Source: Gammaproteobacteria bacterium (GTDB lineage: Bacteria > Pseudomonadota > Gammaproteobacteria > SZUA-229). From it: DNA of 64,000 nucleotides. Below, piece by piece: positions 12,977-61,141 of the stretch (the stretch's first letter is position 1; each line of letters begins with the position of its first letter). The DNA lies in assembly GCA_026195255.1 (NCBI GenBank), contig JAPHSS010000020.1:50887-114886 (forward strand). Reading direction: 5' to 3'. The notes beneath the pieces were generated by a model, which had not been told where the DNA came from, made no database searches, and saw only the letters and a list, made by a program, of their open reading frames with translations. A program made the position numbers and the translations under genes.

Positions 12977-12987
12977 AAAGCTTCGTA

Positions 12988-15867: not shown

Positions 15868-18800
15868 ATGAGTAACAACGAGATCTTTAACCAATACACC
15901 CGACCAAACAAGCATGGCTTATATGACCCTGCCAATGAAACGGAAAACTGTGGTGTAGGTTTTGTGGCGCATATTAAAGGCCAGGCCAGTCATCAGATCA
16001 TTTTAGATGCTGACCAAATGGCGCGCCGCATGAAACATCGCGGTGCTTGTGGCTGTGAAACCAATACCGGTGACGGTGCGGGCATAATGACAGGTCTGCC
16101 TTATGCTTTTTTAACTCGTGTAGCGAAAGAAAGTTTCGATATCGAACTACCCAAAAAAGGCCAATACGCAGCAGGCAATGTCTTTTTACCCGTGGATGAT
16201 AAAGAACGCGCTCAATGTAAAAAACTGGTTAACGAGTTAATTGAAGCGTCTGGTCAGAAACTGATTGGCTGGCGTGAACTGCCGATTGACCCAATCAAAG
16301 CGGACATAGGCTCTACTGCCCGTCAGGCCATGCCCCACATGGAGCAATTATTTGTTGCCGCCGCTGATGGCGTAACAAACGATGATTTCGAGCGTAAGTT
16401 ATACATCTTACGTAAAGATGCAACTCACACTATTCGTGCTAATCAGAACATCAAACAAGCAGATTTATTCTACTTTTGCTCACTTTCTACCAAAGTTATT
16501 GTATACAAAGGCATGCTGAACCCAAATCAGGTAATGCCATTTTACACCGACCTGAACGCTGAAGATTTCACCTCACATCTGGCAATGGTACATTCACGTT
16601 TTTCTACCAATACTTTCCCTTCATGGGATCGCGCTCAGCCTAAGCGTTTTATGAGTCACAATGGTGAGATCAATACTCGTCTCGGCAATGCGAGCTGGAT
16701 GGCTGCCCGTGAAGGTACCGCAAAAAGTGAATTGTTCGGTGATGATATCAAACGCATATTACCGGTAATTGAACCAGAAGTTTCTGACTCGGGTAGTTTT
16801 GATAACGTTTTAGAGTTTCTGTTAATGGGTGGCCGTAGCCTGCAGGAAGCTGTAATGATGATGGTACCTGAAGCATGGCAAAACGACAGCAGCATGTCGG
16901 AAGAAAAGCGTGCATTCTATGAATATCAATCTGCTTTAATGGAACCATGGGATGGCCCGGCATCTATCGTATTTACCGATGGCCGTTATATTGGTGCAAC
17001 CCTGGATAGAAATGGTTTACGCCCAAGCCGTTATTACCTGACTCACGATGACCGCGTCATTATGGCATCAGAAGTAGGCGTAATACCCGTTGATTCAGAC
17101 AACGTTAAACTAAAAGGCCGTTTACAACCAGGCAAAATGTTCCTGATTGATTTCGACCAGGGTCGTATGATTCCTGATGAAGAGCTCAAGCATGAGTTTG
17201 CATCCAAGCAACCATACCACCAGTGGTTATCAAACCAGCGAATTTCTTTATCTCAGTTAGAGCCGAAGCAGGAGCCACACGGCTTTAGTCAGGACGATTT
17301 ACTACCACGAATGCGCGCATTTGGTTACACCTCTGAAACTATGCAGTTCATGTTATTGCCATTAGTTAAAGAAGGTCGTGATCCGGTTGGTTCAATGGGC
17401 AACGATGCGGCACTGGCCTGCATGTCAGATAAGTCTCGAATGATTTATGACTACTTCAAACAGTTATTTGCCCAGGTAACTAACCCTGCAATTGACTCGA
17501 TTCGTGAAGAAGTCGTTATGTCTTTACAGTGCTACATCGGCCCTGAAAAGAACCTGCTGGAATCTAGCGAAGAGCACGCGCATCGCTTATTAATTCCACA
17601 TCCAATTATCACCAATGAAGAACTGGCCGCATTAAAACATATGAATTTTCGCGGCTGGACTACGCAAACCATTGATATGACTTATGATAAGTCTGAAGGA
17701 GAAGCGGGGCTTGCAAACACACTTAACCGTATTTGTGATGAAGCCACACAAGCGATTGAAGACGGACATAGTTTAGTTATTCTATCTGACCGTAATATCA
17801 GCAAAGATCGCATACCCGTTAGTGCTCTTTTAGTAACTGGTTCAGTTCATCAACATCTGGTTAAAAAACATCTACGTACTCGCATTGGTTTAGTTCTAGA
17901 GTCCGGTGAAGCACGTGAAGTTCATCATCACTGCTTATTAACCGGTTATGGTATTGATGCGATTAACCCATACCTGGCTTTCGAAGCATTATGGGATGCA
18001 CAACGTAAAGGTCTGTTAGATCAGAATATTTACGACACTGACGAAAAAATTGTTGAAAGCTACCGTAAGTCGGTTGGCAAAGGCATGTTTAAAGTGTTTG
18101 CGAAAATGGGTATCTCTACTCTGCAATCTTACAAGGCTGCACAAATTTTCGAAGCGGTTGGTTTAGCAGAGGATGTTATAACACGTTGCTTTGAAGGCAC
18201 TGCAAGTCGTATCCAGGGTGTTAACTTAAATGTACTTGCTGAAGAAGCAATGCGTCGTCACGCATTAGGTTATGACGCGCGTGAGTCTAAAGTAACAGTA
18301 CTGCCAAACCAGGGTGATATGCACTGGCGCGCCAATGGCGACAAACATATGTGGAACCCACAAAGCATCGCATCATTACAGCAAGCAGCACGCAGTGGTG
18401 ACAAGAGCGCATTCGATCGTTTTGTTAAACTCGCAAACGAAGATACTAAAAAATGCACGCTTCGCGGCATGTTAAATTTTAAAACCGATGTAAACCCGGC
18501 GATTGATATTAGTGAAGTTGAAGAAGCCAAAGACATTGTAAAACGCTTTGCAACTGGCGCTATGAGTTTTGGCTCTATTTCACCTGAGTCACATGAATCT
18601 TTAGCCATTGCAATGAATCGCATGGGCGGAAAATCAAACACAGGTGAAGGCGGTGAGGATGATGCTCGTTGGACACCAGAGCCAAACGGTGACTCACGTC
18701 GCTCGGCAATAAAGCAGGTTGCATCAGGTCGTTTTGGTGTAACAATTAATTACCTGACCAACGCTGACGAATTACAAATTAAAGTATCACAGGGTGCAAA

Positions 18801-20430
18801 ACCTGGTGAAGGCGGAGAGTTGCCGGGCACAAAGGTCGATGACCTGATTGCTCGGTTACGTCATTCAACACCAGGTGTCGGTTTAATCAGCCCACCACCT
18901 CATCACGATATTTATTCTATCGAAGATTTAGCACAGCTAATTCACGATTTGAAAAACGCCAATCGTACTGCTCGCATTTCGGTTAAGTTAGTGGCAGAAA
19001 ATGGAGTTGGAACAATTGCATCCGGGGTAACTAAAGCACATGCAGATCACATTGTTATCGCAGGTCATGATGGTGGCACCGGCGCCTCACCCATCACATC
19101 AATCAAACACGCAGGACTACCATGGGAACTAGGTGTAGCTGAAACGCACCAAACCCTGGTTATGAATGATCTACGGTCACGCGTTGTTATTCAAACCGAC
19201 GGTCAGATGAAAACCGGTCGTGATGTTGCCATGGCCGCATTACTGGGCGCCGAAGAATATGGTTTTGCAACTGCGCCATTAATTACCATGGGTTGCATTA
19301 TGATGCGTAAGTGTCATTTAAATACCTGCCCTGTTGGTATTGCGACTCAAGATAAAGAATTGCGTAAGAAATTTAAAGGCAAACCAGAACATGTTGTGAA
19401 TTATCTGTTTATGGTGGCTGAAGACTTACGAAAAATCATGGCCCAATTAGGTTTCCGCACTATCAATGAAATGATTGGTCGTGTTGATTGTTTAGAGCAG
19501 GTTACTGATTCTGAGCACTGGAAACAAACGGGCATTGATTTAAGCATGTTATTAACACCGGCGGAAAAACCACATGCGAATGTTGAAGTCCACCAGACCA
19601 TTAAACAGGATCACGGTTTAGATAAAGCATTAGATAACCAGTTAATCGAACTATCTAAAGACGCTTTAGGCAACGGCACAATCGTTAACATCGACTTACC
19701 GATTATTAATACAAATCGTGTTATAGGAACCATGTTATCGAATGAAGTCGCCAAGAAATATGGTTCAGCCTTATTACCTGACGGCACCATCAATATTAAA
19801 TTGAGCGGTTCTGCGGGCCAGTCATTAGGTGCATTTCTGGCCAGCGGCATCACCATTGAAGTTGAAGGTGATGCTAATGATTATGTAGGCAAAGGCTTAA
19901 GTGGCGGTCGGGTGATTGTGACACCAGCTAAAAATGCAACTTTTGTGGCAGAAGAAAATATTATTGTAGGCAATGTATGTTTGTACGGTGCAACATCTGG
20001 TGAGGCCTATTTCCGCGGTATCGCAGCTGAACGTTTCTGCGTCAGAAACTCTGGTGCAACCGCTGTTGTTGAAGGCATTGGCGACCACGGTTGTGAATAT
20101 ATGACGGGTGGTCGAATTGCAGTCCTCGGCACTATAGGGCGTAACTTTGCTGCAGGCATGAGTGGTGGCATCGCTTATATCTGGGATCATGCAGGCGACC
20201 TGTCAACCAAGTGTAATATGGGCATGGTTGAACTAGAAACTGTTTCTGCAGCTGAAGATATAAACGAACTTAAAACAATGATTGAAAACCATCTTAAATA
20301 TACTGGTTCTGCAGTAGCAGAACGATTATTAAAAGATTGGGACGGAGCGTTAAGTCAGTTTGTTAAAGTAATGCCAACAGATTACAAACGCGTACTTGAA
20401 GAACAGAAAAAGAAAGCGAATGCAGCTTAA
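15868..20430 (+). CDS. gltB: Glutamate synthase (NADPH) large subunit GltB
   Basis: A 1520-aa protein. The N-terminal amidotransferase domain starts with the Cys in CGVGFVAHIKG, followed by the FMN-binding domain and the C-terminal GXGXG domain. Confidence 0.95.
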   Translation: MSNNEIFNQYTRPNKHGLYDPANETENCGVGFVAHIKGQASHQIILDADQMARRMKHRGACGCETNTGDGAGIMTGLPYAFLTRVAKESFDIELPKKGQYAAGNVFLPVDDKERAQCKKLVNELIEASGQKLIGWRELPIDPIKADIGSTARQAMPHMEQLFVAAADGVTNDDFERKLYILRKDATHTIRANQNIKQADLFYFCSLSTKVIVYKGMLNPNQVMPFYTDLNAEDFTSHLAMVHSRFSTNTFPSWDRAQPKRFMSHNGEINTRLGNASWMAAREGTAKSELFGDDIKRILPVIEPEVSDSGSFDNVLEFLLMGGRSLQEAVMMMVPEAWQNDSSMSEEKRAFYEYQSALMEPWDGPASIVFTDGRYIGATLDRNGLRPSRYYLTHDDRVIMASEVGVIPVDSDNVKLKGRLQPGKMFLIDFDQGRMIPDEELKHEFASKQPYHQWLSNQRISLSQLEPKQEPHGFSQDDLLPRMRAFGYTSETMQFMLLPLVKEGRDPVGSMGNDAALACMSDKSRMIYDYFKQLFAQVTNPAIDSIREEVVMSLQCYIGPEKNLLESSEEHAHRLLIPHPIITNEELAALKHMNFRGWTTQTIDMTYDKSEGEAGLANTLNRICDEATQAIEDGHSLVILSDRNISKDRIPVSALLVTGSVHQHLVKKHLRTRIGLVLESGEAREVHHHCLLTGYGIDAINPYLAFEALWDAQRKGLLDQNIYDTDEKIVESYRKSVGKGMFKVFAKMGISTLQSYKAAQIFEAVGLAEDVITRCFEGTASRIQGVNLNVLAEEAMRRHALGYDARESKVTVLPNQGDMHWRANGDKHMWNPQSIASLQQAARSGDKSAFDRFVKLANEDTKKCTLRGMLNFKTDVNPAIDISEVEEAKDIVKRFATGAMSFGSISPESHESLAIAMNRMGGKSNTGEGGEDDARWTPEPNGDSRRSAIKQVASGRFGVTINYLTNADELQIKVSQGAKPGEGGELPGTKVDDLIARLRHSTPGVGLISPPPHHDIYSIEDLAQLIHDLKNANRTARISVKLVAENGVGTIASGVTKAHADHIVIAGHDGGTGASPITSIKHAGLPWELGVAETHQTLVMNDLRSRVVIQTDGQMKTGRDVAMAALLGAEEYGFATAPLITMGCIMMRKCHLNTCPVGIATQDKELRKKFKGKPEHVVNYLFMVAEDLRKIMAQLGFRTINEMIGRVDCLEQVTDSEHWKQTGIDLSMLLTPAEKPHANVEVHQTIKQDHGLDKALDNQLIELSKDALGNGTIVNIDLPIINTNRVIGTMLSNEVAKKYGSALLPDGTINIKLSGSAGQSLGAFLASGITIEVEGDANDYVGKGLSGGRVIVTPAKNATFVAEENIIVGNVCLYGATSGEAYFRGIAAERFCVRNSGATAVVEGIGDHGCEYMTGGRIAVLGTIGRNFAAGMSGGIAYIWDHAGDLSTKCNMGMVELETVSAAEDINELKTMIENHLKYTGSAVAERLLKDWDGALSQFVKVMPTDYKRVLEEQKKKANAA

Positions 20431-20456
20431 TTTATTTTTAAAAATAAAAGAGAAAG

Positions 20457-20652
20457 AAAACGCGAATGAACGCTAATAAACGCAAATGCACGCTAAATTA
20501 ATTTTACGTACATAATAGTGTTGCCATTTCTGGATAATTGCTTCGGAAATCTAACGCCACTTAAAAGAATAAGTCCCCGACGCATTCGGGGAGAACAACA
20601 CGATATATATTGATTTGCGTTTATTTACGGTTATTTGCGTTCATTTGCGTTA
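20457..20652. repeat. Structured gltB-gltD intergenic element: two inverted arrays of four 10-bp direct repeats (consensus yATTTGCGTT) flanking a roughly 115-bp core that contains a GC hairpin
   Basis: Left array, read on the minus strand: ATTTAGCGTG CATTTGCGTT TATTAGCGTT CATTCGCGTT. Right array: GATTTGCGTT TATTTACGGT TATTTGCGTT CATTTGCGTT. Core hairpin GTCCCCGACGCATTCGGGGAG at about 20573-20593. Confidence 0.6.
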
Positions 20653-20685
20653 AATCTTTTATTACAAAAGGTTATAAATAATAGT

Positions 20686-22134
20686 ATGGGTAAGATTACA
20701 GGTTTTAAAGAATTCGAACGCAAGACTGCACCTTATCGTGACGTAACTGAACGTCTGAAAGATTTTGGTGAAATCTATACCGAACATGATAACCAGCACC
20801 TGATTACACAGGGCGCACGTTGCATGGATTGTGGCATTCCTTTCTGTCAGTCAGATGATGGCTGCCCGGTTGATAATCTAATTCCTGAATGGAACGATCT
20901 GGTTTACAACAATCGCTGGCAAGATGCTAACGAACGTTTACATCACACTAATAACTTTCCTGAATTCACTGGCCGTGTCTGTCCCGCGCCCTGTGAAGGC
21001 TCATGTGTATTAGGTATAAACAGTCCTGCCGTAACTATTAAAAACATTGAATGTGCAATTGTAGACCGTGCATTTGATGAAGGATGGATTACCGCTCAAG
21101 CGCCAGCAACTCGTAGCAGTAAAAAAGTAGCCGTTGTAGGCTCTGGCCCTGCAGGTATGGCGGCAGCACAGGAATTAAACCGGGCAGGTCATACGGTTAC
21201 TGTTTATGAACGCGCTGACCGCATTGGCGGCCTGTTAATGTACGGCATACCCAACATGAAACTCGACAAAAGTATTATTGATCGCCGGGTTCAGTTAATG
21301 AAAGACGAAGGCATTGAATTTAAAACAAATGCTGATGTTGGTAACAATATTGATATAAAAGAATTAAAACAAAACACTGATGCCATTTTATTTGCAACGG
21401 GCGCAACCACACCCCGAGATTTACCCGTAGATGGTCGTGATTTAAATGGCGTTCACTTCGCAATGGATTTTCTGACTGCAAACACAAAAAGCCTGTTAGA
21501 TTCAAATCTTCAAGACGATAACTATATTAGCGCTAAAGACAAACATGTTGTTGTTATTGGTGGTGGAGATACCGGTACTGACTGTATCGGCACCTCATTA
21601 CGCCACGGCTGCAAATCTGTTGTTAACTTCGAGTTAATGCCAGTACCGCCTGAGGCTCGTGCTGAAAACAATCCGTGGCCCGCCTGGCCTCACATCTACC
21701 GTGTAGACTATGGCCACGAAGAAGCAAAAAAAGTACAGGGAGAAGACCCTCGCACTTACTGTGTACTGAGCAAAGGTTTTACAGGCACTGACGGAAACGT
21801 TTCTAGCGTTAAAACTATTGAAGTTGAGTGGCATAGCGATGAAGAGACCGGCCAATGGAAAATGCAGGAAGTTGCTGGCTCTGAAAAAGAATGGCCAGCT
21901 GATTTAGTATTACTGGCAATGGGTTTTCTGGGTCCAGAACACTATGTAAGTGATGCGCTAGAAATTGAATATGATGAGCGTTCAAACTACAAAGCTGAAT
22001 ATGGAAAGTACGCCACCAGTATAGAGGGTGTTTATGCAGCAGGTGATTGCCGTCGCGGACAGTCTTTAGTTGTTTGGGGAATCAATGAAGGTCGCCAGGC
22101 AGCTGCCGAAATAGATCAGTTTCTGATCAGCTAA
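20686..22134 (+). CDS. gltD: Glutamate synthase small subunit GltD
   Basis: Fe-S cysteine clusters ([18 protein letters not shown]) and the FAD/NAD(P) dinucleotide fold [14 protein letters not shown]. Start chosen at the ATG at 20686, after an RBS. Confidence 0.9.
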
Positions 22135-22210: not shown

Positions 22211-23167
22211 CTAAAAGCTTTTAATTTCTAGCTCACTCTCTGTCGCAGGAACGAACGCATAGGATGCATATATTTTTTGCGCATCAGGCGTTGCCAGGTA
22301 TTTTAAAAAAACTTTTGCATTCTCTTTATTTCTAGCTTTATTCATTATACCAATAGCGTATGCAACCTTATCTTGCTTGTTGTAAGGCGCCTTAATTGCC
22401 ACACCATCAATTTTACGTCCCTCAGCTTTTGCATGCGCAACTTCTGAGGTCCAGACTATACCCACATCTGCCTGGTTGTTTTCTATACGATATGGCGTTT
22501 CACGGTGATGACGCTCAGTAAACCAGGTTTTCTGTGGCACCGCCCAGCATTTTTTGCATTTCTTATCTGCCGTTACCTTTTCATAAATACCCAGGTCTTT
22601 TAACATTTCACTACCATAAAATTTAAAAATACCTTCTGTTAAAGGATTTGGGTGTGACTGCACAAGATCATCTCTACCTAAATCTTCGGCGCCCTTTATG
22701 TTTTTGGGGTTACCCTCCGCCACCATTAACTCAAGTTTATTATGTGTATAAATTATATAGTTATTAAGCAAGCCTTTTTTATTTAACTTTTTAAGATGAT
22801 TTATATTTACACTTGCATATAAGTCAGGTGTCATAGATGTTTTTGCTCCATTTATTTTACCCTGCTTTAATAATTGCTTTTTTAAAATCTGTCCCGGCGG
22901 AATTGTTTCAACATAAACTGTTTTAATATTCTGGTTCTTTGATTGGAAGTCCTTTATCAACTCTTCCATAACCATGAACTGATTACCTGCCAGATACATA
23001 ACCAGATCTGAGTCGTATGAATCTTTTATATTGCCATAACCTATATCACCATTAACATTAAAGGTTCTATAGTCATGACCATGACCAGCGTCTTTTGCAC
23101 TAACCATTGACGAAAGCATTAACAACAATAATGTAGTAAACATATTTAATACGGGTTTTTTAATCAT
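22211..23167 (-). CDS. Periplasmic oxyanion-binding protein of the ModA/Sbp (molybdate, tungstate, sulfate/thiosulfate) fold. Orphan: no permease or ATPase gene nearby.
   Basis: Signal peptide. The C-terminal region ADVGIVWTSEV...AKVFLKYLATPDAQKIYASYAFVP resembles the ModA/Sbp/CysP C-lobe. I cannot resolve the subfamily from sequence alone. Confidence 0.55.
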   Translation of the reverse strand: MIKKPVLNMFTTLLLLMLSSMVSAKDAGHGHDYRTFNVNGDIGYGNIKDSYDSDLVMYLAGNQFMVMEELIKDFQSKNQNIKTVYVETIPPGQILKKQLLKQGKINGAKTSMTPDLYASVNINHLKKLNKKGLLNNYIIYTHNKLELMVAEGNPKNIKGAEDLGRDDLVQSHPNPLTEGIFKFYGSEMLKDLGIYEKVTADKKCKKCWAVPQKTWFTERHHRETPYRIENNQADVGIVWTSEVAHAKAEGRKIDGVAIKAPYNKQDKVAYAIGIMNKARNKENAKVFLKYLATPDAQKIYASYAFVPATESELEIKSF

Positions 23168-23327
23168 ATTTAATCTCCAGCTATATTATTTTTAATTTTT
23201 ATTTTCCATATATAGACGTTACAGAATAATTTTTTATTCCATATATTTTTATGCAACTTCATGTTGATATATTTCACGTATGCATATATTTTATATTACG
23301 TGTTTAACCTTAAAAAATGAGAATCTT

Positions 23328-23798
23328 ATGAAAAAACCATTGTCATCTGTTATTACACTTCTAAGTTTATTAACTATTTATACATTTAGTCACGCCGGGC
23401 CTGCAGGCTTGATAAATAAAGCCAGCAATTTTAATACTAATGAGACTATCAACCGACTAGAAGCCGTATTAAAAAAGAAAGGCATTACTGTTGTCACACG
23501 GTGGAACCATAGCGAGCGCGCTAAAGACATAGGCATTACACTCAGACCAACCGAGCTTATTATATTTGGAAATCCTGAATTAGGTAGTCAGTTTTTTACA
23601 TCTCAACAAACTTCAGGTATAGACTTACCTATGAAAGCACTAGCATGGGAAGATGAAACTGGTCAGGTATGGCTAAGTTACAATGATCCTTCATTTATAA
23701 CTTCCCGTCACAACATAAAAGATAGAGAGAATGTTTCAAAAAAAATGAAAAATGCTTTAAACAAACTCACCAATATTGCAACAGGAAGTAAAAATTAA
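23328..23798 (+). CDS. Secreted DUF302-family protein
   Basis: Signal peptide, then a DUF302-like core (…IFGNPELGSQFF…IDLPMKALAWEDETGQVWLSYNDP). It overlaps the stop of the convergent anti-sigma gene by 4 bp. Confidence 0.55.
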   Translation: MKKPLSSVITLLSLLTIYTFSHAGPAGLINKASNFNTNETINRLEAVLKKKGITVVTRWNHSERAKDIGITLRPTELIIFGNPELGSQFFTSQQTSGIDLPMKALAWEDETGQVWLSYNDPSFITSRHNIKDRENVSKKMKNALNKLTNIATGSKN

Positions 23799-24496
23799 AT
23801 TTTAATATATGACCAGCCTTCATGTACACGTTTAACAACCTGCTCAATTGCAGTTACACCATGATGTACTGAGTTGATCATTTTAGGCTCAATGCCTTCT
23901 TTACGTAGACGCTCTACCGCATTACTACAAGCTATGAATTTTATATTTGGATATTCATTGCTCAAGGCTTTTACTCGTTGCGAATAGGGAGATGCGTTTT
24001 CACGAAACAAATCAAGCCCACCTGCATTAGCAATAATTTCTAATTGTATACCCTGATCAATATTTTGATAATTAGCTAATAACATTTCAGCCTGATCAAG
24101 GGTTTGTTTAAATTTTTTATTATCATTTACGCTAATGTGTAAAATATACTTGCCGGGATTTTCAGCAAGCACCTGCATTGCCGGATTAACTGAACTTTCA
24201 TCTGACGTGCCCATGCGATTGCTCAGCATATCACTAGTAAACCAGCCGCCTGTAAATGTAATAATTAAAAGAGCCACTGAAGCCAGCATACGATAGCTAC
24301 TATTTGAAGCCTGTTGTTTAACAGGTGGTTTCACATTCTGGTATGCATGCTGTAACTGTGCTTTTAACGCGTATAAATCATCAAGAGTTTGCTGCAGACT
24401 TGTATCAGTCAATAAGGCTTTTTCAAACTCTGTTTTTTCACCGCCTTGCAGCTCACCATCTGCATAGGCATGTATAATTTCTGTAGAGAATTCCAT
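23795..24496 (-). CDS. Membrane anti-sigma factor whose periplasmic C-terminal domain has a DsrE/YchN-like (sulfur-relay fold) sequence
   Basis: N-terminal anti-sigma domain (IHAYADGEL..EKAL…LDDL) lacking a zinc motif, one TM helix (MLASVALLIITFTGGWF), and a C-terminal roughly 130 aa that is paralogous to the CDS at 25309-25745 and keeps a conserved Cys (ACSN). It is 3 bp downstream of the ECF sigma gene. Confidence 0.65.
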   Translation of the reverse strand: MEFSTEIIHAYADGELQGGEKTEFEKALLTDTSLQQTLDDLYALKAQLQHAYQNVKPPVKQQASNSSYRMLASVALLIITFTGGWFTSDMLSNRMGTSDESSVNPAMQVLAENPGKYILHISVNDNKKFKQTLDQAEMLLANYQNIDQGIQLEIIANAGGLDLFRENASPYSQRVKALSNEYPNIKFIACSNAVERLRKEGIEPKMINSVHHGVTAIEQVVKRVHEGWSYIKI

Positions 24497-24498
24497 TA

Positions 24499-25086
24499 TT
24501 ATTTTACCACTCTCAAAATGTTGTCTGCATTGCTTTCCTGTGCTTTACATGCCACATGTGTTTTATTTTGTTGTTCCAAACGCTTTTTTTTAATGCTCTT
24601 ACCTAAGGCACTTCTTGCCCTGTTTAAGCGACTCATCACTGTACCAATAGGCACCTGTAATACACTTGCCACTTCACTATAACTAAGACCCTCCAGATCA
24701 ACCAGACTAACAACCTGACGCTGGGCATTAGGCAGGCCGGTCATGGCGCTACGCACCATCAGGTCAACCTGATTTACCAGCATTTCATGCTCTGGTGTAT
24801 TATTGTCTGCAATTACAATTCGTTCAATATCTTCACTGGGCCTGCTTTTTCTTAAATAACCCAACCAGACGTTATTTAAAATCGTATAAACCCAGCCATC
24901 AAAAGCCGCCTCGTCTTTCAATTGCTCAATTTTTTGAAGCGCCAACATCTGGGTTTCCTGCACCAGGTCATCAGCCAGCATGGCATCATGCGACCAGGCA
25001 TATGCCATTCGATAAAGCTTTGGACGACTTGACTCTATGCGTCTAACAAGCCCCACCTTACGACAGGCTAGTTTAAATATATTCAC
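24499..25086 (-). CDS. ECF (group 4) sigma-70 family RNA polymerase sigma factor
   Basis: Region 2 (LVQETQMLALQKIEQLKDEAAFDGWVYTILNNVWLGYLRK) and region 4 (SYSEVASVLQVPIGTVMSRLNRAR). Confidence 0.85.
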   Translation of the reverse strand: MNIFKLACRKVGLVRRIESSRPKLYRMAYAWSHDAMLADDLVQETQMLALQKIEQLKDEAAFDGWVYTILNNVWLGYLRKSRPSEDIERIVIADNNTPEHEMLVNQVDLMVRSAMTGLPNAQRQVVSLVDLEGLSYSEVASVLQVPIGTVMSRLNRARSALGKSIKKKRLEQQNKTHVACKAQESNADNILRVVK

Positions 25087-25106
25087 TACACACTCTTAAT
25101 TATCCC

Positions 25107-25240
25107 TTAAACAAATTGGATTACTAAATTAAAGATACATTTGTCCTGGTTTTTATTCCATTTAATTTAAATTAAATCATTAATTAGAAAACAACTAAAT
25201 TAGCACTATCTAATTCATTGATTTAATTAAACAAATTGGA
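25107..25240. promoter_or_regulatory. Divergent promoter region holding two direct copies of TTAAACAAATTGGA exactly 120 bp apart
   Basis: The repeat copies are at 25107-25120 and 25227-25240, in the AT-rich spacer between the ECF sigma gene (minus strand) and the DsrE-like gene (plus strand). Each TTGGA(A/T)TA could serve as an ECF-type -35 element (GGAAT). Confidence 0.35.
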
Positions 25241-25308
25241 ATATTTTTTCCATACGTTTCATCTATTACCTGAATCACAATTAAACCTGAGGAGGTTAAT
25301 AAAAAAAA

Positions 25309-25745
25309 TGAAATCAATAATTCTAATTTTCACGCTACTGCTGTGCATGGCATCAATGACTGCTAATGCAGATAGCACTAGCAAGCCATTCGCTGAAAAG
25401 CGTGTAGTTCTTCAGATAAGCGACCCAAATCCATTTAAACAAACACTGGTTTTAAATGTTGCCGGCAATCTGATCAAGCACTATGGTCAGGATAAGGTTG
25501 ATATTGAAATAGTTGCATTTGGCCCTGGCCTTAGACTATTAATGGCAGGTAATAGTAATCAGTCACGTATTAGCGGCTTGAGCGATTCGGGCATCCAGTT
25601 TTCTGCATGTGAAAATACCATTGCAGCTTTTACTAAAAAATTAGGCCATAAACCCGAACTGGTTTCACAGGCAACACCTGTTAGTGCAGGTATTGTACGA
25701 ATTTTAGATCTAACAGCTCAGGGTTACACTCTGATTAAGCCTTAA
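25309..25745 (+). CDS. Secreted DsrE/YchN-like fold protein, paralogous to the anti-sigma C-domain
   Basis: GAGGAGG RBS and a signal peptide (MKSIILIFTLLLCMASMTANA). VLQISDPNPFKQTL / IEIVAFGPGLRLL / FSACENT align with the anti-sigma motifs ILHISVNDNKKFKQTL / LEIIANAGGLDLF / FIACSNA. Confidence 0.5.
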
Positions 25746-25767
25746 TATGCATCATGAGGAAATATTA

Positions 25768-27078
25768 ATGAATATAAAAAAAATAGCATTATTGACTGGT
25801 TTGTCATTAATTAGCACAGGCACATATGCTGCCAACTGGCTGTCGTTACAGGGAACAGAGAAACCGGGCTCATCAGCACGAGCAAAGGTATGGGGATTTA
25901 TACAACCTGAATACCAGAAAACTGATGGTACAAAATTACCTGCAGGTACCCCTTTTGGCGGACAGAACATGTCTCCAAATATGATCAAACCAGATAACAC
26001 ATCTAATGAATCGTTTAATATTCGTCGTGCACGTGTTGGTGTACGAGGTACAGGCTTCCCTCTTGATGACAATGTTAACTACTTCTTCCTGGCAGAATTT
26101 GGCCACAACGGAATAACCAAGCTGGGTAAAACAGGTGTTTCACTTACTGACGCCAGCATAACTTTAAACCATATCTCTGGCGCACGTATTCGAGTTGGGC
26201 AATTTAAAACACCGACATCTGAAGAAGGTTTACAGGCCATTCACGTATTTAACTATGTGAACTTTACCAGTATGACTGACCAGATGATGCTTGAACGCTT
26301 TACTGATGGTGATGGCATTGCCGCCCCAACTACAAATGCTAATGGACCCAATGGGTCAGTGGGTGCTTTTCGTGATCAGGGTATCCAGGTATTTGATACA
26401 TTCAAGGTAAACGACTGGGAACACAGTTATGCGGTAATGTATGGCAATGGAAATGGCATTAACCGCTCTGATAGTGACAATAACAAAGACACATACCTAT
26501 ACTGGTCGTCTGAACTTGTTTATGGCGGTAAAGGCGCACGTCGTGAAGGCCTTAAAATGTTCGCATGGAACCAGGATGGTACTCGCACCTTAACGACCTC
26601 AGGTGCCGGTGAATATGACCGTACCCGTAATGGTTTGGGCATCACTTTTCTTAAAGGCAAGTATCGCGCAGCAGCCGAATACATGACTGCAGATGGTATG
26701 ATCTTTAATGGTTCTGACGGCGGAGCAGTTCCTGGCTCTAGAAACAATGCTGATACAACCACCGCCACCCTAAATGTGCTCACTGACGATAAATCTGATG
26801 GTTATTACCTGGATTTCGGCTACAAGGTATTACCAAAACTTGAGCTGGATATTCGTTATGACGTATTAAACAGAGCAACTGAAACTGTAAACGGTGAACG
26901 TGTTTTCGATACAGTCACTCTGGGTGCACAATACTTCTTTAACAAGAAGACCCGCGTCACTTTCAACTATGAAATACGCAATCAGGATGCCCCCGGGTTT
27001 ACTGATACTCAGGGTCCAAACCTGATTGCCGATAATCTTGACGACAGATTGTCATTACAGTTATTAGCAATATTCTGA
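25768..27078 (+). CDS. Outer-membrane beta-barrel porin, possibly an OprO/OprP-like anion-selective porin
   Basis: GAGGA RBS, a signal peptide (…TGTYA-ANW), amphipathic beta-strand periodicity over about 440 aa, and a C-terminal aromatic residue (…LAIF). The subfamily is a guess. Confidence 0.5.
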   Translation: MNIKKIALLTGLSLISTGTYAANWLSLQGTEKPGSSARAKVWGFIQPEYQKTDGTKLPAGTPFGGQNMSPNMIKPDNTSNESFNIRRARVGVRGTGFPLDDNVNYFFLAEFGHNGITKLGKTGVSLTDASITLNHISGARIRVGQFKTPTSEEGLQAIHVFNYVNFTSMTDQMMLERFTDGDGIAAPTTNANGPNGSVGAFRDQGIQVFDTFKVNDWEHSYAVMYGNGNGINRSDSDNNKDTYLYWSSELVYGGKGARREGLKMFAWNQDGTRTLTTSGAGEYDRTRNGLGITFLKGKYRAAAEYMTADGMIFNGSDGGAVPGSRNNADTTTATLNVLTDDKSDGYYLDFGYKVLPKLELDIRYDVLNRATETVNGERVFDTVTLGAQYFFNKKTRVTFNYEIRNQDAPGFTDTQGPNLIADNLDDRLSLQLLAIF

Positions 27079-27103
27079 TAGTTATAAATAAACTGGAAAC
27101 GTT

Positions 27104-27131
27104 AACCTCCCTTGCTCTGGGGAGGTTTTAT
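27104..27131 (+). terminator. Rho-independent terminator after the porin gene
   Basis: CCTCCC-TTGCTCTG-GGGAGG hairpin followed by a TTTTA run. Confidence 0.6.
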
Positions 27132-27301
27132 ATTAAAAAAGGAACATTTTAATCTAATTAAGTAACGACTAATACTGACTTTGAATTGCCCATATTGATT
27201 GATTTACTGTATTTATGTGCTATCTTTTATATTCGGAGCTTAATATAAGCGGCGTTGTTGTCTTGCTATTATTAACCTTCACAGTATATCAGGAGTATCC
27301 T

Positions 27302-28198
27302 TTGCGTCATTTCTTTTTACAATTTTCTAGCTGCATCTTCATATTTTATTCAAGCTCACTTTACTCTCAGGAAAATATTCTTAACTGGGTAGGTTGCGGC
27401 ATAAGTAAAAAATCTTATATGACACGCCTTGCCAAAGCATACACCGACTCTAAAAAAATAGATGTAAACTTACAAGGTGGCGGAGCAACACGTGGCATAC
27501 GTGATGTTTCAAAATTAACGGCAGACTTTGGAGGGGCTTGCAGATATTATTTACCAGGAAACCTTCAGGAAGAAAAAGTCGGTTTTGAACCCGTTGCCTG
27601 GGATGCATTAGCCGTTATTACACACCCTGACAACCCCGTCAATAACTTATCTCTTAAGCAGGTTAGGAAAATATATACCGGTGAAATCACAAACTGGAAA
27701 TCCGTTGGCGGTAATGATGCCCCAATAAAATTATTAACCCGAAAAGGTAAAATTTCTGGCGTAGGTTACTCAATACGTTCTTTAATATTTTCTGATACAA
27801 ATATGGAATTCCCACATTCAAAAAAGTTTAAATCGAGTGGCCCAATTGAAAAAGCCGTTGAGTCAGATATTAATGCTCTTGCCATTACAGGTGTGAGTAG
27901 CGCGAGATTAAGACAGGTTAAAATATTGAGCCTGAACAATAAACAACCAAATTATGACACTATCAAAAGTGGTCATTATGTTTTATATAGACCTCTTTAT
28001 ATAACCTTCAATCCACTAGGCCCCCAGGCAAAACAGGTTAAGGATTTTATTCGTTTTGCACACAGCAAAACAGGTAGAAGCATTATGATTAAAAATGGTG
28101 TAGTACCCTACATTGATGCCCTCAGGCTGGTGATGATCCAGTCTAGACAAACTTTAGCATCCCAGTCGAATAGTAAATCTAACTTAACTTACGATTAA
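27302..28198 (+). CDS. PstS-family (phosphate-type) periplasmic oxyanion-binding protein. Orphan: no pstCAB nearby.
   Basis: AKAYTDSKKIDVNLQGGGATRGIRDV...ADFGGACR resembles the PstS N-lobe (…GGGSG.G…SR). The likely start is the TTG at 27302, after an AGGAG; the ORF track gives 27215. Confidence 0.5.
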   Translation: MRHFFLQFSSCIFIFYSSSLYSQENILNWVGCGISKKSYMTRLAKAYTDSKKIDVNLQGGGATRGIRDVSKLTADFGGACRYYLPGNLQEEKVGFEPVAWDALAVITHPDNPVNNLSLKQVRKIYTGEITNWKSVGGNDAPIKLLTRKGKISGVGYSIRSLIFSDTNMEFPHSKKFKSSGPIEKAVESDINALAITGVSSARLRQVKILSLNNKQPNYDTIKSGHYVLYRPLYITFNPLGPQAKQVKDFIRFAHSKTGRSIMIKNGVVPYIDALRLVMIQSRQTLASQSNSKSNLTYD

Positions 28199-28332
28199 CA
28201 GCTCAGCCAGTAATAAATATTATTCGTTAGAAAGCCATAATACAGACACATAATTAAAACATATCAGCTTATTAACCTCCCCTGGTTAACAAAAACTCTG
28301 TGTTATGTTCGCCTCTGTGGCAAAATAGCCAC

Positions 28333-30078
28333 ATGGCTGGCCGTATACCTCAACAATTCATTGACGACCTTATCAATCGTGCTGACATAGTCGACGTTGT
28401 AGACTCACGTGTCGCCTTAAAAAAGCGCGGCAAAGAACATATTGCCTGCTGCCCTTTCCATAATGAAAAAAGCCCTTCTTTTACTGTTAGTCAAAGTAAG
28501 CAGTTTTATCATTGTTTTGGCTGTGGAGCCCATGGCACTGCACTTGGCTTCATAATGGAGTACGAGCGTCTTGACTTTGTAGATGCCATTGAAGTACTTG
28601 CCGCTGAGTACCATATCGACGTACCTCGTGAACAGGGCAGTTTTAACCCCCAGCAAGATGACAAAAAACCACTCTATGAAATTTTAGAAAAAGCCTCTCT
28701 TAATTTCGCAAATGAATTAAAAAAAACACCTCGTGCGGTAGAATATTTAAAACAGCGCGGCTTAAGTGGTGAAATTGCAAAAGACTTTCAAATGGGTTAC
28801 GCACCTGATAGCTGGGATTTCACACTAGGGCAACCAGGCCTGAGTAAAGAAGATAAAACTGCCTGCCTAAAGTCAGGTTTGAGCATCGAAAAAAGCCCTC
28901 AGAAACATTACGACCGTTTTCGTGACCGTATAATGTTTCCTATACGAGACCGACGCGGTCGTACAATTGGCTTTGGTGGCCGCATACTGGATAAGGGAGA
29001 GCCCAAATATTTAAACTCCCCTGAAACCCCGGTATTTCATAAAGGCGAAGAGTTATATGGCTTATATGAAGCAAGGCAATCAGTAAAAGACTTAAAACGG
29101 ATTGTCATTGTTGAAGGTTATATGGACGTTGTTGCACTTGCACAACATGGAATCAAATATGCGGTAGCCACCCTGGGAACGGCTACTTCAGAAACACAGA
29201 TATCCAAACTGTCTCGCATCGTTCCTGAATTAATTTTTTGTTATGATGGTGATGCGGCAGGAAAAAAAGCAGCCTGGCGAGCATTAGAAAATTCACTCTC
29301 TGTATTACGAGATGGTATACAGGCAAGATTTTTATTCTTACCAGATGGAGAAGACCCTGACACCCTGGTCAGGCAAGAAGGGCAACAGGCTTTCGAACAA
29401 CGTTTAAGTAATGCGACACCTCTCTCAGATTTTATGTTGCAACATTTATCAGAAGATCTGGATTTATCTTCTGCCGATGGTTGTGGTCGACTTTCAGAAA
29501 AGGCCAAACCCTTAATTAGTAAAATTGAAGATGGTGTATTTAAAGACCTGTTAGTTAATCAACTTTCAAAAATGATTGGTTTATCCAGTTCCAGCCTGCA
29601 ACAACACATCCCCGAGTCGAAAAACAAAACACAAACTCCGCACTACAATAACAGAGCAGTGTCTGCAAAACACCAGATCAGCATGACCCCTACCCGTCTT
29701 GCCATTGCGCTATTATTACAACACCCGTCACTTGCAAAAGAGTGTGAAATTCCCGAACAACTTTTATCCTCTGATATGCCGGGTTTAAAACTGCTAATAC
29801 AAATACACAAAACAATATTACAAACAGATGCAATCTCACCTTCGGTTTTAGTTGAACGCTGGCGAGACACTATTGACGCACCTGTTATTAATAAACTTAT
29901 GCAACTAGATATACCTGAAGCGAAGAAAGATACGCAACTCGCATCTTTAAAAGATGCTTTTAAGAATCTGCTGCAAAAACACAAAGACGAACGCCTACAG
30001 GAATTACTAAACAAAAGCCGCACATCTGAATTAAGCTCAGATGAAAAAAGTGAATTAAGCCAGCTTTATCAGAGCTAA
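28333..30078 (+). CDS. dnaG: DNA primase DnaG
   Basis: MAGRIPQQFIDDLINRADIVDVV N-terminus, a CHC2 zinc finger (CCPFHNEKSPSF…CFGCGAHG), the TOPRIM domain, and a C-terminal DnaB-interaction domain. Confidence 0.9.
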   Translation: MAGRIPQQFIDDLINRADIVDVVDSRVALKKRGKEHIACCPFHNEKSPSFTVSQSKQFYHCFGCGAHGTALGFIMEYERLDFVDAIEVLAAEYHIDVPREQGSFNPQQDDKKPLYEILEKASLNFANELKKTPRAVEYLKQRGLSGEIAKDFQMGYAPDSWDFTLGQPGLSKEDKTACLKSGLSIEKSPQKHYDRFRDRIMFPIRDRRGRTIGFGGRILDKGEPKYLNSPETPVFHKGEELYGLYEARQSVKDLKRIVIVEGYMDVVALAQHGIKYAVATLGTATSETQISKLSRIVPELIFCYDGDAAGKKAAWRALENSLSVLRDGIQARFLFLPDGEDPDTLVRQEGQQAFEQRLSNATPLSDFMLQHLSEDLDLSSADGCGRLSEKAKPLISKIEDGVFKDLLVNQLSKMIGLSSSSLQQHIPESKNKTQTPHYNNRAVSAKHQISMTPTRLAIALLLQHPSLAKECEIPEQLLSSDMPGLKLLIQIHKTILQTDAISPSVLVERWRDTIDAPVINKLMQLDIPEAKKDTQLASLKDAFKNLLQKHKDERLQELLNKSRTSELSSDEKSELSQLYQS

Positions 30079-31466: not shown

Positions 31467-31588
31467 TTATTAGTTTCTAGTTTGGCTAAAAATGAGCACG
31501 GATCTAAAATCGGCATAATCTGCCACTACAAGATTCACTCATATGGCTTTATTAGCGCTGCTAGTATTTGTATCGAGGAATTGTAAAC

Positions 31589-32749
31589 ATGTCAAAAAGT
31601 CACCTATTTACATCTGAATCCGTATCAGAAGGACATCCTGATAAGGTTGCTGATCAGATATCGGACGCTATCCTGGATGGTATTTTTCAACAGGATCCGA
31701 AAGCACGTGTAGCTTGTGAAACACTTATTAACACCGGTATGGTTGTTTTATCAGGCGAGATAACCACTGAAGCATGGGTCGATATGCAGCAAATTGTGCG
31801 CGATACTGTGCGAAATATTGGTTATACCAGCTCCGAAATGGGCTTTGATGCTGATTCCTGTGCAGTTATCACCTCTATCGACAAACAGTCTCCTGATATT
31901 GCTATGGGCGTTAATGAGGGAGAAGACCACGAGCAAGGTGCTGGTGATCAGGGTCTTATGTTTGGTTATGCCTGTAATGAAACAGACGTACTTATGCCTG
32001 CACCGATTACTTATGCGCATAAACTCGTTAGACGTCAGGCAGAAGTGCGTAAAAATGGCACATTAAACTGGTTACGCCCGGATGCTAAAAGTCAGGTTAC
32101 TTTCCGTTATGAAGATGGCGTTCCTGCAGGCATTGAGGCGGTTGTTTTATCAACACAACATTCTCCTGATATCAGCCTGAGCGCACTGCGTGAAGCCGTT
32201 ATGGATGAAATTATTAAGCCAGTATTGCCGGCTGAGCTAATCAGTAAAGACACTAAATATCATATCAACCCAACGGGTAACTTCGTTATTGGTGGCCCTG
32301 TTGGTGACTGTGGTTTAACTGGCCGTAAAATCATTGTTGATACTTACGGCGGTATGGCGCGTCACGGTGGTGGTGCCTTCTCTGGTAAAGACCCCTCAAA
32401 AGTCGATCGCTCTGCTGCTTATGCTGGTCGTTATGTTGCAAAGAATATTGTTGCCGCTGGTCTGGCTGACAAATGTGAAATTCAGGTTTCGTACGCAATC
32501 GGTGTTGCCGAGCCTACCTCTATTTCTATTGAAACATTCGGCACAGGCAAAATTGATGATAGCCGCATTGAAGAACTGGTACGCGAACATTTCAACCTCA
32601 AACCAAAAGGCCTTATTCAAATGCTTGATCTATTGCGCCCAATCTACGCAAATACAGCAGCTTATGGTCATTTTGGCAGAACTGAAGATAACTTTACCTG
32701 GGAACGTACAGATAAAGCAGCAGCACTAAAAGACGCAGCTGGTATTTAA
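31589..32749 (+). CDS. metK: S-adenosylmethionine synthetase MetK
   Basis: [30 protein letters not shown], plus the GAGDQG and GGGAFSGKD motifs. Start chosen at the ATG at 31589. Confidence 0.95.
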
Positions 32750-35994: not shown

Positions 35995-36447
35995 TTACAT
36001 CATTACCTGTTTTACAATTGATTCAAGTTTTTCAATATTAACAATACTATAAGTACCATCAGCCATCATCACTTTGTCTTCAATGGCAGGGTGTGTTATT
36101 TCTTCTTTATTTGAAATAATATCTTCTTCTTTAACATTAACTACTGTCGGTGCATCCTGCATTAAAATTGACATGAACGGTAAGTTACTATCTTCACCAA
36201 TAGAAAACAAAATAGCCGCTTTAACTGAACCAGTAGCAAGACTCGGCATGCGAACATTACCCATTGCTTCAAATGAAATAAGTGGAACTGAATGTCCACG
36301 CCAATCTAAATAACCTAACATCCAGCCAGGTTTATTTGCCACATTAATAATATTTTTAATAGGCACTATTTCAGCTACCGCTGCATTAGGCATTAACAGC
36401 TCATCACCATTAATCTTTAATATTACACATTTAATTTCTTCAGACAT
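35995..36447 (-). CDS. chpC: CheW-like coupling protein ChpC
   Basis: A 150-aa CheW domain immediately downstream of chpA, with a 1-bp overlap. Confidence 0.7.
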   Translation of the reverse strand: MSEEIKCVILKINGDELLMPNAAVAEIVPIKNIINVANKPGWMLGYLDWRGHSVPLISFEAMGNVRMPSLATGSVKAAILFSIGEDSNLPFMSILMQDAPTVVNVKEEDIISNKEEITHPAIEDKVMMADGTYSIVNIEKLESIVKQVMM

Positions 36448-42410: not shown

Positions 42411-42419
42411 ACTCTAGCC

Positions 42420-44546: not shown

Positions 44547-44579
44547 AAACCATTTTGATCTTTATATTCGTTCTGTTTC

Positions 44580-59877: not shown

Positions 59878-59902
59878 TTTAATTCAACTTTAATTTTATT
59901 GT

Positions 59903-61072: not shown

Positions 61073-61141
61073 TCCAAACTCCAGTTATTATAATTATATG
61101 ATTTTAACGATCTCTAAAGCCTATCGATTACTTTAAAAATA

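Follow-up and report, generated by a model that had tools for sequence, protein, structure and literature searches.

The locus

The subject of this report is an insertion-like block of ∼6 kb located between gltBD (15868-22134) and dnaG (28300-30078) in a 64,000-nucleotide stretch of DNA from a Gammaproteobacteria bacterium of the SZUA-229 lineage (GenBank assembly GCA_026195255.1, contig JAPHSS010000020.1, positions 50,887 to 114,886 of the forward strand). The whole stretch is called the window here. The block contains seven genes, and its core appears to be an extracytoplasmic function (ECF) sigma factor together with its anti-sigma factor. An initial annotation had been drawn to the two periplasmic binding proteins at the ends, one with a ModA/Sbp fold and one with a PstS fold, and to a porin; the positions and folds of all three are borne out by Pfam. 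It is the genes between the two binding proteins, for the sigma factor, the anti-sigma factor, a DUF302 protein, and a DsrE-like protein, that seem to explain the block. The evidence is in silico throughout: gene content, folds, promoter motifs and their conservation, orphan status, and gene neighbourhoods. The seven genes are the following:

22211-23167, minus strand: SBP1, an orphan periplasmic binding protein of ModA/Sbp fold, 318 aa (PF13531 SBP_bac_11, E 2.5e-35)
23328-23798, plus strand: secreted DUF302 protein, 156 aa (PF03625, E 4e-17)
23795-24496, minus strand: anti-sigma factor, 233 aa (weak zf-HC2 and anti-sigma matches)
24499-25086, minus strand: ECF sigma factor (Sigma70_r2 and Sigma70_r4_2)
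25308-25745, plus strand: secreted DsrE-like protein of the MTH1491/COG1416 type, 145 aa (family profile against PDB)
25768-27078, plus strand, with an alternative start at 25747: porin of the OprO/OprP family (PF07396 Porin_O_P, 36.1 bits versus a cut-off of 20.9)
27302-28198, plus strand: orphan binding protein of PstS fold, 298 aa (PF12849 PBP_like_2, E 1.9e-24)

Sec-type signal peptides can be read from the sequences of SBP1 (residues 1-24), the porin, and the PstS-like protein. The DUF302 gene points away from SBP1 and towards the anti-sigma gene. An Rfam search of the block returned no riboswitch or other RNA element, hence no clue to molybdenum cofactor or to any other ligand.

Where, then, are the transporters that binding proteins of these folds would be expected to serve? 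The initial annotation held that no permease or ATPase genes occur in the window. Taken literally this does not hold, given FtsE/FtsX, PilT-type ATPases, and assorted membrane proteins; what does stand is the lack of an ATP-binding cassette (ABC) importer. FtsE, an ABC ATPase (4456-5136), and FtsX (5129-6085) are the sole ABC pair of the window, and a scan of all six frames for Walker-A and LSGGQ motifs found no other ABC ATPase. Pfam annotation of 30 further open reading frames (ORFs) in the window revealed no importer permease, and neither modBC nor pstCAB genes are present there. That both binding proteins are orphans, as had been proposed, is upheld beyond the window as well, with no importer beside SBP1 in 74 loci or beside the PstS-like protein in 78 loci.

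A sigma factor and an anti-sigma factor with a DsrE-like domain

The sigma factor comprises regions 2 and 4 and scores 76.5 bits against TIGR02937 (sigma70-ECF), above the cut-off of 42.9. Its gene is translationally coupled to that of the anti-sigma factor, which begins with a short anti-sigma domain, crosses the membrane once (helix at residues 70-88), and ends in a periplasmic domain resembling DsrE. This C-terminal domain aligns with the free 145-aa protein of the block, and the two belong to one family, whose joint profile matches in PDB 1L1S (MTH1491, E 8.7e-25), 2PD2 (ST0148, 1e-13), and 8UJA (2e-11). The single 145-aa sequence reaches 15.5 bits versus 22.7 with the Pfam model DsrE (PF02635; E 0.02).

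One cysteine is invariant in each of the two: C101 in the 145-aa protein, where G74 and G139 are the other invariant residues, and C190 in the anti-sigma factor, kept in 100% of 146 full-length representatives. The anti-sigma::DsrE family is large, with 555 clusters (50% identity) at E<=1e-10, most of them full length. Judged by sequence and fold comparison, a DsrE-like fold with a conserved active-site cysteine can be assigned both to the 145-aa protein and to the anti-sigma domain, and their capacity to carry sulfur is putative.

The cysteines of DsrE-family proteins accept sulfane sulfur or thiosulfonate groups, as established for DsrE3A/TusA (PMC4175335), and these carriers have in common with the block's proteins the small alpha/beta fold (1L1S, 2PD2) and one essential cysteine. 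Methylovirgula thiovorans HY1 has a periplasmic DsrE-like protein encoded within its sox operon (PMC9371685), and in relatives of the block, likewise, a secreted DsrE-like copy is encoded with sulfur-oxidation genes. What differs from known DsrE carriers is the setting: the block has one copy as the periplasmic part of an anti-sigma factor and a second as the first gene of a porin operon, and the literature searched contained neither arrangement. In that literature no description of an anti-sigma factor with a DsrE-type domain was encountered, and the paper that re-classified the ECF sigma factors makes no mention of DsrE, DUF302, sulfite, or solute-binding neighbours.

Promoter motifs and the predicted regulon

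Three intergenic, correctly oriented sites in the block share the pattern TGGAATA-N16-YRTCT:

23214-23241, minus strand: ECF-type promoter motif TGGAATAAAAAATTATTCTGTAACGTCT, 47 nt before the SBP1 start codon
25133-25160, minus strand: ECF-type promoter motif TGGAATAAAAACCAGGACAAATGTATCT, 47 nt before the sigma gene (autoregulation)
25237-25264, plus strand: ECF-type promoter motif TGGAATATTTTTTCCATACGTTTCATCT, 44 nt before the DsrE-like/porin operon

These are the only matches in 64 kb, against 0.05 expected, a count that is circular on its own, since these three sites had themselves served to define the pattern. Independent support comes solely from conservation of the motif in other loci (labelled L001, L004, and so on). 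The sites before the sigma gene and the DsrE-like gene keep the motif in L001, in L004, and in 8/8 metagenome orthologues, while the spacers are not conserved. The site before SBP1 is kept at an unchanged position, again with variable spacers, in L001 and in 7/8 metagenome orthologues, and the motif is present in L118 too; it is missing from L004 and L088. Farther away, motifs of this type stand before the sigma gene in the distant loci L011, L023, L038, L058, and L084, in the form GGAATAAA-N14-CGTCT where the sigma factor is only 42-51% identical, and also before the DsrE-like gene in L058 and L027. No ECF motif lies before the DUF302 gene on its own strand or before the PstS-like gene.

The sigma/anti-sigma pair thereby shows in silico the features of an ECF system, a membrane anti-sigma factor predicted to be co-transcribed and a predicted autoregulatory promoter of GGAAC/CGT type (here GGAATA-N17-YRTCT). 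Read in this way, the block is a predicted regulon of the ECF sigma factor, and SBP1 and the porin are likely to be co-regulated because both carry the same ECF-type promoter motif.

SBP1, a binding protein with a remodelled pocket

SBP1 has a well-known fold and falls short of the curated cut-offs for ModA, Sbp, and CysP. It scores 53.3 bits against the ModA model TIGR01256, below the equivalog cut-off of 62.5, 16-35 bits against other ModA models (cut-offs 246-470), 37.8 bits against Sbp (TIGR00971, cut-off 155.5), and 38.3 bits against CysP (NF008106, cut-off 308). Its AlphaFold2 (AF2) model, with a confidence (pLDDT) of 82, is matched by structures of ModA, WtpA, Sbp, and FbpA at <=21% identity, the best of them being ModA-type folds, and the PDB fold search produced no closer solved relative.

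A comparison of the ligand-binding residues, proposed in the initial annotation as one check, shows that neither pocket is canonical: SBP1 differs from 1SBP, and the PstS-like protein from E. coli PstS. In a profile alignment of SBP1 with 1SBP, from which the N-lobe ligands are excluded, Ser130 is replaced by an invariant Glu178, Gly132 by Ile180, and Ala173 by His220; the loop carrying Ala173 becomes R219-H220-H221-R222, and an invariant C204-x-x-C207 sits shortly before it. The PNP-x-T-x-G anion loop, Gly131, and Trp192 (W239 in SBP1) are retained. By this alignment the uncharged anion site of the Sbp type appears not to be preserved, and the pocket of SBP1 would be non-canonical.

The similarity to the sulfate, thiosulfate, and molybdate proteins Sbp/CysP (1SBP, 5UM2) and ModA (1AMF, 4KD5) is one of fold (class II, cluster D), anion loop, and the Trp192 equivalent. 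SBP1 departs from them in its low identity, in Glu178, in the RHHR loop and the added CxxC, in the absence of cysTWA or modBC from all 74 loci, in its predicted control by an ECF sigma factor or a TtrS-type regulator, and in being far more conserved than typical binding proteins. The mean column identity of the family alignment is 72%, and the invariant motifs are YLAGNQFMVM, ETIPPGQI, SHPNPLTEG, CxxCW (C204, C207), and RHHRETP. Relatives were found in ∼525 loci of a data set with one genome per species, and the best 80 are all >=67% identical to the protein of the window (67-91% over the relatives examined). These best 80 come from Thiotrichales, Cycloclasticus, Sedimenticola, Thiohalobacter, Woeseiaceae, relatives of Beggiatoa, Methylococcaceae, Hyphomicrobiaceae, and SAR324.

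Neighbourhoods of SBP1 and a probable link to sulfur

Since SBP1 is so widespread, its company in other genomes offers another source of information. ORFs were called and clustered in 82 loci. An ABC importer next to SBP1 was seen in 0/74 SBP1 loci, cysTWA and modBC included. An ABC-ATPase motif occurs within 5 kb of SBP1 in 2/74 loci, both times in a fused half-transporter of exporter type, and partial or more distant members of this exporter cluster adjoin SBP1 in two more loci. The half-transporter (596 aa, MsbA/Atm1-like by NCBIfam; L074 2582-4372, L077 11134-12924, L051, L064) is found directly 3' of SBP1 in operons of histidine kinase, response regulator, and SBP1, with a DUF302 gene ∼2 kb beyond.

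Two recurrent settings stand out. The first, represented by 11 loci and the window, consists of the sigma gene, the gene of the anti-sigma factor with its DsrE-like domain, and SBP1, often followed by an HbpS-like gene, and is divergent from the DsrE-like/porin operon. In L038, L060, and L084 this operon is extended by thioredoxin and YeeE/Sulf_transp, and in L032 by thioredoxin only. The loci L060, L038, L084, L032, and L035 also contain a convergent pair encoding a DsrE-like protein and SoxB, continued in L060 by SoxA, SoxZ, and SoxY; the SoxB is bona fide, with 830 bits against TIGR04486 (cut-off 550).

The HbpS/GlcG-like protein (PF03928) is secreted. In the Woeseiaceae-type loci L031, L032, L038, and L060 (e.g., L060 10951-11460) its gene shows translational coupling with the 3' end of SBP1, and the window has no such gene. 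In Streptomyces, HbpS assists a two-component system as a redox-sensing accessory.

In the second setting (9 loci), the neighbour of SBP1, at a distance of 68-805 nt, is a transmembrane regulator whose periplasmic domain is of the Phosphonate-bd type. Some of these regulators are GAF-HisKA-HATPase kinases, usually with a LuxR-type response regulator nearby; the others, 4/9, are kinase-less one-component proteins with a LuxR helix-turn-helix (L049 2606-4465, L021 7195-9198, L014 463-2481, L016 1-1050). Pfam verified the order Phosphonate-bd, then HisKA and HATPase_c, in L053 and L067. This domain order is the defining one of TtrS and ThsS, which sense tetrathionate and thiosulfate (PMC5408782). 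In those systems, TtrSR and ThsSR, the known outputs are respiratory reductases (ttrBCA, phsABC) and not a binding protein, whereas here the regulator stands immediately beside SBP1 in the nine related loci, the window not being one of them. The four one-component regulators lie directly upstream of SBP1; their Phosphonate-bd (PhnD-like) domain is joined through a transmembrane helix and a cytoplasmic linker to the helix-turn-helix, and they resemble TtrS/ThsS-TtrR/ThsR without the kinase. A "histidine kinase" cluster (23 loci) is heterogeneous: one part is TtrS/ThsS-like, and another, made up of cytoplasmic kinases of PAS type or of GlrK/GlrR-like pairs with TypA, may reflect housekeeping synteny and was not counted as evidence.

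Other neighbours lead in the same direction. In L079, a locus from SAR324, SBP1 is the last gene of an apparent operon that also encodes a DsrE-like protein, a SorA-like molybdoenzyme, and a cytochrome c. The ORFs flanking L011 resemble AprBA by sequence; what a family search bore out is limited to a ferredoxin domain (4Fe-4S) within the initial 60 residues of one of these ORFs. Genes of thioredoxin fold are found close to SBP1 in ∼13 loci. The DUF302 gene accompanies SBP1 in the clade of the window and in two TtrS-type loci, L074 and L077; in other sulfur oxidisers, DUF302 genes are located within sox clusters (PMC5037610). Among named genomes, the closest to carry the entire block belongs to a sulfur-oxidising symbiont of the tubeworm Galathealinum. 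Taken together, these neighbourhoods point to reduced-sulfur chemistry and give no indication of phosphate, molybdate, or sulfate assimilation.

That SBP1 might supply molybdate to the SorA-like molybdenum enzyme was considered and rejected, as there is no permease and the molybdenum cofactor is assembled in the cytoplasm.

Could the module answer to metals instead? It might be a response to metal or metalloid stress (e.g., Cu, Zn, Mo/W, Se, or Te), with SBP1 binding the metal and the cysteine of the DsrE-like protein serving as a metal or selenium ligand. SBP1 has invariant C204, C207, H172, H220, H221, and E178 in addition to an N-terminal GHGHD motif, iron-binding proteins of the FbpA type are among its fold neighbours, and YeeE/YedE relatives are also found in selenium metabolism (NF033796 matches weakly). 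Metal sensing is, besides, common among ECF systems. The recurrent neighbours, however, are SoxB, SoxAZY, the SorA-like enzyme, and the TtrS/ThsS-type sensors, with no metal efflux or resistance genes among them, and the N-terminal His29 of SBP1 is not conserved. We regard this explanation as quite unlikely.

Is SBP1 a sensor or an output?

The initial annotation had suggested that orphan binding proteins can act, among other roles, as periplasmic sensors. For SBP1 this is doubtful, given that the anti-sigma factor and the adjacent kinases carry periplasmic sensor domains of their own. The favoured reading is that SBP1 is a regulated output and not the primary sensor: it has a target promoter of its own, sensor domains are already present in its partner regulators, it is near-invariant while the anti-sigma domain diverges, and half of the adequately flanked loci have no regulator.

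A serious rival is that SBP1, once loaded with its ligand, docks as a co-sensor on the periplasmic domain of the anti-sigma factor or kinase, in the manner of RseB or of TorT, LuxP, and AioX; its ECF-dependent expression would then be a feedback loop. RseB is encoded in the rpoE-rseA-rseB operon, and in distant loci the sigma factor, the anti-sigma factor, and SBP1 share one operon in which SBP1 takes the position held by modulators such as RseB. In other loci SBP1 is directly downstream of histidine kinase and response regulator pairs. That orphan binding proteins feed sensors is well established (TorT is cited in PMC5408782), and in TorT-TorS, LuxP-LuxQ, and AioX-AioS, as here, a binding protein without a transporter stands beside signal-transduction genes.

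The same systems also show the difference, because the kinases that partner TorT, LuxP, and AioX have no ligand-binding domain of their own, whereas the kinases near SBP1 already possess a Phosphonate-bd sensor domain and the anti-sigma factor a DsrE-like one. SBP1, unlike those proteins, carries a target promoter, and in the window it forms a separate, divergently placed unit behind it. Conservation tells against docking too. In loci where SBP1 is 67-72% identical to that of the window, identity is 42-51% for the sigma factor, 44-49% for the porin, and no more than 27-33% for the anti-sigma periplasmic domain, and this last divergence is ill-suited to a conserved docking pair. Finally, among the 37 SBP1 loci with >=3 kb on both sides, 19 contain no regulator. 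On balance a co-sensor role is rather doubtful, and output remains the favoured role.

The porin operon and the PstS-like protein

The DsrE-like gene heads the porin operon, with the porin 22 nt downstream. The pair is divergent from the sigma gene and is kept in distant loci (porin 44-49% identity). Like OprP and OprO of Pseudomonas, the porin belongs to PF07396 above the gathering score, the match covering residues 83-410; it has no sequence match to solved structures, the OprP/OprO chains included, and exact-sequence look-ups with both starts returned no record. It is further set apart from OprP/OprO by its ECF promoter, its operon with a DsrE-like protein, and the lack of a Pho box.

Between the porin and the PstS-like gene lies one more feature:

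27104-27135, plus strand: G+C-rich hairpin (27104-27127) followed by a T-run, resembling a Rho-independent terminator, after the porin stop

The stem of this hairpin is kept in L001 and L004, while the loop and the remaining spacer vary. The initial annotation placed the porin immediately upstream of the PstS-like gene, and the two are indeed adjacent; they are, nonetheless, separated by a gap of 223 nt and by the conserved terminator-like hairpin. Because this terminator precedes it, the PstS-like gene is probably a separate transcription unit, and it is not demonstrably part of the module.

The PstS-like gene starts with TTG after AGGAG, a start corroborated by a 96%-identical homologue that also has 298 aa. 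The protein scores 128.5 bits against TIGR02136 (versus 206.6) and 26.4 against TIGR00975 (versus 205). In an hhalign comparison with E. coli PstS, Ser38 is replaced by Ala62, Asp56 by Cys80, and Thr141 by Val154; Ser139 and Gly140 are kept, as is a basic residue at or beside Arg135, with Arg147/Lys148 aligned to E. coli Arg134/Arg135. The ligand numbering of the E. coli reference is self-consistent in this comparison, which does not extend to Thr10 and Phe11. Cys32 and Cys80 are invariant in the PstS-like family, which spans 53-96% identity among the 120 best matches.

The contexts of this family, examined in 78 metagenome and 3 genome loci, are the end of dnaA-dnaN-recF-gyrB (often behind a divergent TetR gene and a CMD/AhpD-like gene), the position before DAHP synthase, and, as in the window, the position before dnaG. 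pstCAB is absent from the 78 loci, which contain two non-adjacent ABC ATPase-like ORFs. The context of the block is confined to the clade of the window (>=72% identity), so the adjacency of porin and PstS-like gene appears lineage-specific, without demonstrated functional meaning. One locus is instructive: L118 (contig Ga0209345_10000112, 5000-8000) has the order gltD-SBP1-DUF302-PstS-like-dnaG, and the genes for sigma factor, anti-sigma factor, DsrE-like protein, and porin are missing from the gltD-dnaG interval, while a GGAATA...CATCT motif is still found before SBP1. This may mean that the four genes move together as one mobile module, or else that the genome of L118 has its sigma gene at another site.

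A similar company is kept by both cysteine-bearing orphan binding proteins, which recur beside CMD/AhpD-family proteins. In 13-14 loci (L087, L098-L113; e.g., L087 6543-8900), a cytoplasmic CMD/AhpD-like protein encoded on the same strand and a divergent TetR gene precede the PstS-like orphan. In Cycloclasticus an AhpD-like gene follows SBP1 (L003 11107-11703), and a CxxC motif was seen in this SBP1-linked protein.

How did the pairing of both binding proteins with a dedicated porin, as first proposed, fare? It is supported for SBP1, which shares the ECF motif with the porin operon, and is not for the PstS-like gene, which lacks the motif and elsewhere lies by gyrB, DAHP synthase, or TetR/CMD genes. 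The proposal, in the same annotation, of uptake or sensing across the outer membrane only does not apply generally, as in more distant versions the porin operon also encodes an inner-membrane YeeE/Sulf_transp protein. The earlier reading was, in sum, right in spirit for SBP1 and the porin, and wrong on the coupling of the PstS-like protein and on the likely chemistry. From its sequence and contexts, the PstS-like protein appears to be a second, independent orphan outside the regulon.

The porin and the PstS-like protein might alternatively be taken for a phosphate-starvation pair under Pho control, as OprP and PstS are in Pseudomonas. The resemblance is one of family only (Porin_O_P and PBP_like_2). 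A Pho-box search gave chance-level matches and none before either gene, the porin is predicted to be co-transcribed with the DsrE-like protein from an ECF promoter, and the conserved terminator stands between the two. Three phosphate ligands are replaced in the PstS-like family, whose loci, as said, have no pstCAB. A Pho pair is thus highly improbable.

A broader possibility is that both binding proteins are ordinary parts of ABC importers for molybdate, sulfate/thiosulfate, or phosphate, with partners elsewhere in the genome, and that the block is a chance juxtaposition. The ModA/Sbp and PstS folds would fit, the database names of relatives are molybdate or phosphate ABC substrate-binding proteins, and the inspection of this genome extended over 64 kb. 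Yet the scores lie far below every curated equivalog cut-off, ligands are replaced in SBP1 (Ser130 by Glu, the Ala173 loop by RHHR) as well as in the PstS-like protein (Ser38 by Ala, Asp56 by Cys, Thr141 by Val), and importer genes are lacking beside either family in 74 and 78 independent loci. SBP1, moreover, has an ECF promoter in common with the porin operon, and its neighbours are regulators and Sox genes. We consider this explanation unlikely.

A model for the block

The reading we prefer is that the core of the block is an ECF sigma/anti-sigma module that responds to reduced or partly oxidised sulfur species in the periplasm, to which we assign a probability of about 55%. Polysulfide, thiosulfate, or a polythionate would modify the sensor residue Cys190 of the anti-sigma factor in the inner membrane and cause release of the sigma factor. 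The freed sigma factor would then transcribe three units with promoters of the form GGAATA-N17-CRTCT: its own operon, the DsrE-like/porin operon, and SBP1. Passage of the anionic sulfur compound through the outer membrane would be the task of the porin; bound to its cysteine as an adduct, the compound would be carried by the free DsrE-like protein, and SBP1, with a cleft similar to that of Sbp/CysP and remodelled by Glu, Arg-His-His-Arg, and CxxC, would bind or process it in the periplasm without an ABC transporter. The identity of the signal, the cysteine chemistry, the selectivity of the porin, and the action of SBP1 on its ligand are what we infer in this scheme.

There are precedents for such a circuit. 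The ECF26 factors RpoE1 and RpoE4 of Sinorhizobium meliloti respond to sulfite and control SorT (PMC3511301), and sox genes are under ECF control in Arcobacter butzleri (PMC3445524). As in these systems, the block would have an autoregulated sigma/anti-sigma pair that switches adjacent periplasmic functions of sulfur oxidation. Their targets are SorT or a Sox operon, and neither a DsrE-like anti-sigma domain, nor an orphan binding protein, nor a porin target has been reported for them.

Several observations weigh against a sulfur-responsive module, in addition to the circularity of the motif count. There are no sox, dsr, sor, or yeeE genes in the window, so that the link to sulfur rests on relatives. 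SBP1 is also present in Cycloclasticus and Methylococcaceae loci without sulfur genes within 10 kb. The calling and clustering of ORFs in the loci is crude, and some of the histidine-kinase neighbours represent GlrK/GlrR-TypA synteny and may be fortuitous. As for SBP1 itself, Glu178, the two histidines, and the N-terminal GHGHD motif fit a cation or metal equally well, and the AF2 model is weakest at the putative ligand loop 173-178, where pLDDT is <50.

A bolder version of the sulfur-responsive module may be put forward, tentatively. SBP1 could be a new periplasmic catalyst or covalent carrier on a binding-protein fold, whose CxxC, reduced by thioredoxin, acts on thiosulfate or polythionates, and the anti-sigma::DsrE proteins could be the first anti-sigma factors to sense sulfane sulfur or thiosulfonate by cysteine modification. 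We hold this to be possible, with the odds against it.

Other features of the window

Outside the block, the window is occupied by housekeeping genes: ftsYEX-rpoH, plsY, tsaD, metK-ahcY-metF, a Pil-Chp chemosensory cluster, gshB, and pyrBC. Some of them deserve a comment. A SAH (S-adenosylhomocysteine) riboswitch (RF01057; 31400-31471, plus strand; 58 bits versus a gathering score of 37) lies ∼100 nt before metK (31568-32749), which is followed by ahcY (32840-34246) and metF (34351-35202), so that it apparently heads a methyl-cycle operon metK-ahcY-metF. The SAH riboswitch is usually found before ahcY alone.

The cluster of Pil-Chp type (35995-45110, minus strand) includes CheW (35995-36447), a methyl-accepting chemotaxis protein of PilJ type (42420-44546), a second CheW (44580-45110), and an ORF of 1987 aa (36447-42410) that is presumably ChpA-like. 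Three ORFs for PilT/PilU-like ATPases lie within 58738-62176. An HtrA-like serine protease (53065-55860, minus strand) is unusually long at 931 aa, with Trypsin_2 and several PDZ domains. For three ORFs, 163-284 aa in length, Pfam gave no match at E<=1e-5 (3882-4385, plus strand; 12873-13364, minus strand; 57540-58394, plus strand); the second of them overlaps the opposite-strand ORF 12988-13440 and may be no gene.

Significance

To our knowledge, the regulation of periplasmic sulfur oxidation is known only patchily, from SoxR of the ArsR type, a few two-component systems, and ECF26 in rhizobia. By what means do sulfur oxidisers detect and capture extracytoplasmic sulfur species? The locus described here bears on this question. 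As a system it varies known themes, namely, ECF signalling, orphan binding proteins, and sulfur carriers of the DsrE kind; two of its components, the SBP1 and anti-sigma::DsrE families, are uncharacterised and widespread.

Three leads follow. One is a large family of anti-sigma factors with a sensor domain of DsrE type and a single invariant cysteine. Another is SBP1, an exceptionally conserved binding protein without a transporter, present in the genomes of several hundred species of marine and sediment bacteria and tied to at least two kinds of sulfur-anion sensor. The last is a porin predicted to be co-expressed with a putative periplasmic sulfur carrier.

There is also a practical side: proteins such as SBP1 and the PstS-like protein are at present labelled as molybdate or phosphate ABC transporter components, and metabolic reconstructions of sediment bacteria and sulfur-oxidising symbionts would be led astray by these labels. 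If SBP1 does prove to be a catalyst or a carrier, bacterial sulfur oxidation would have a very widespread component that has so far been overlooked.

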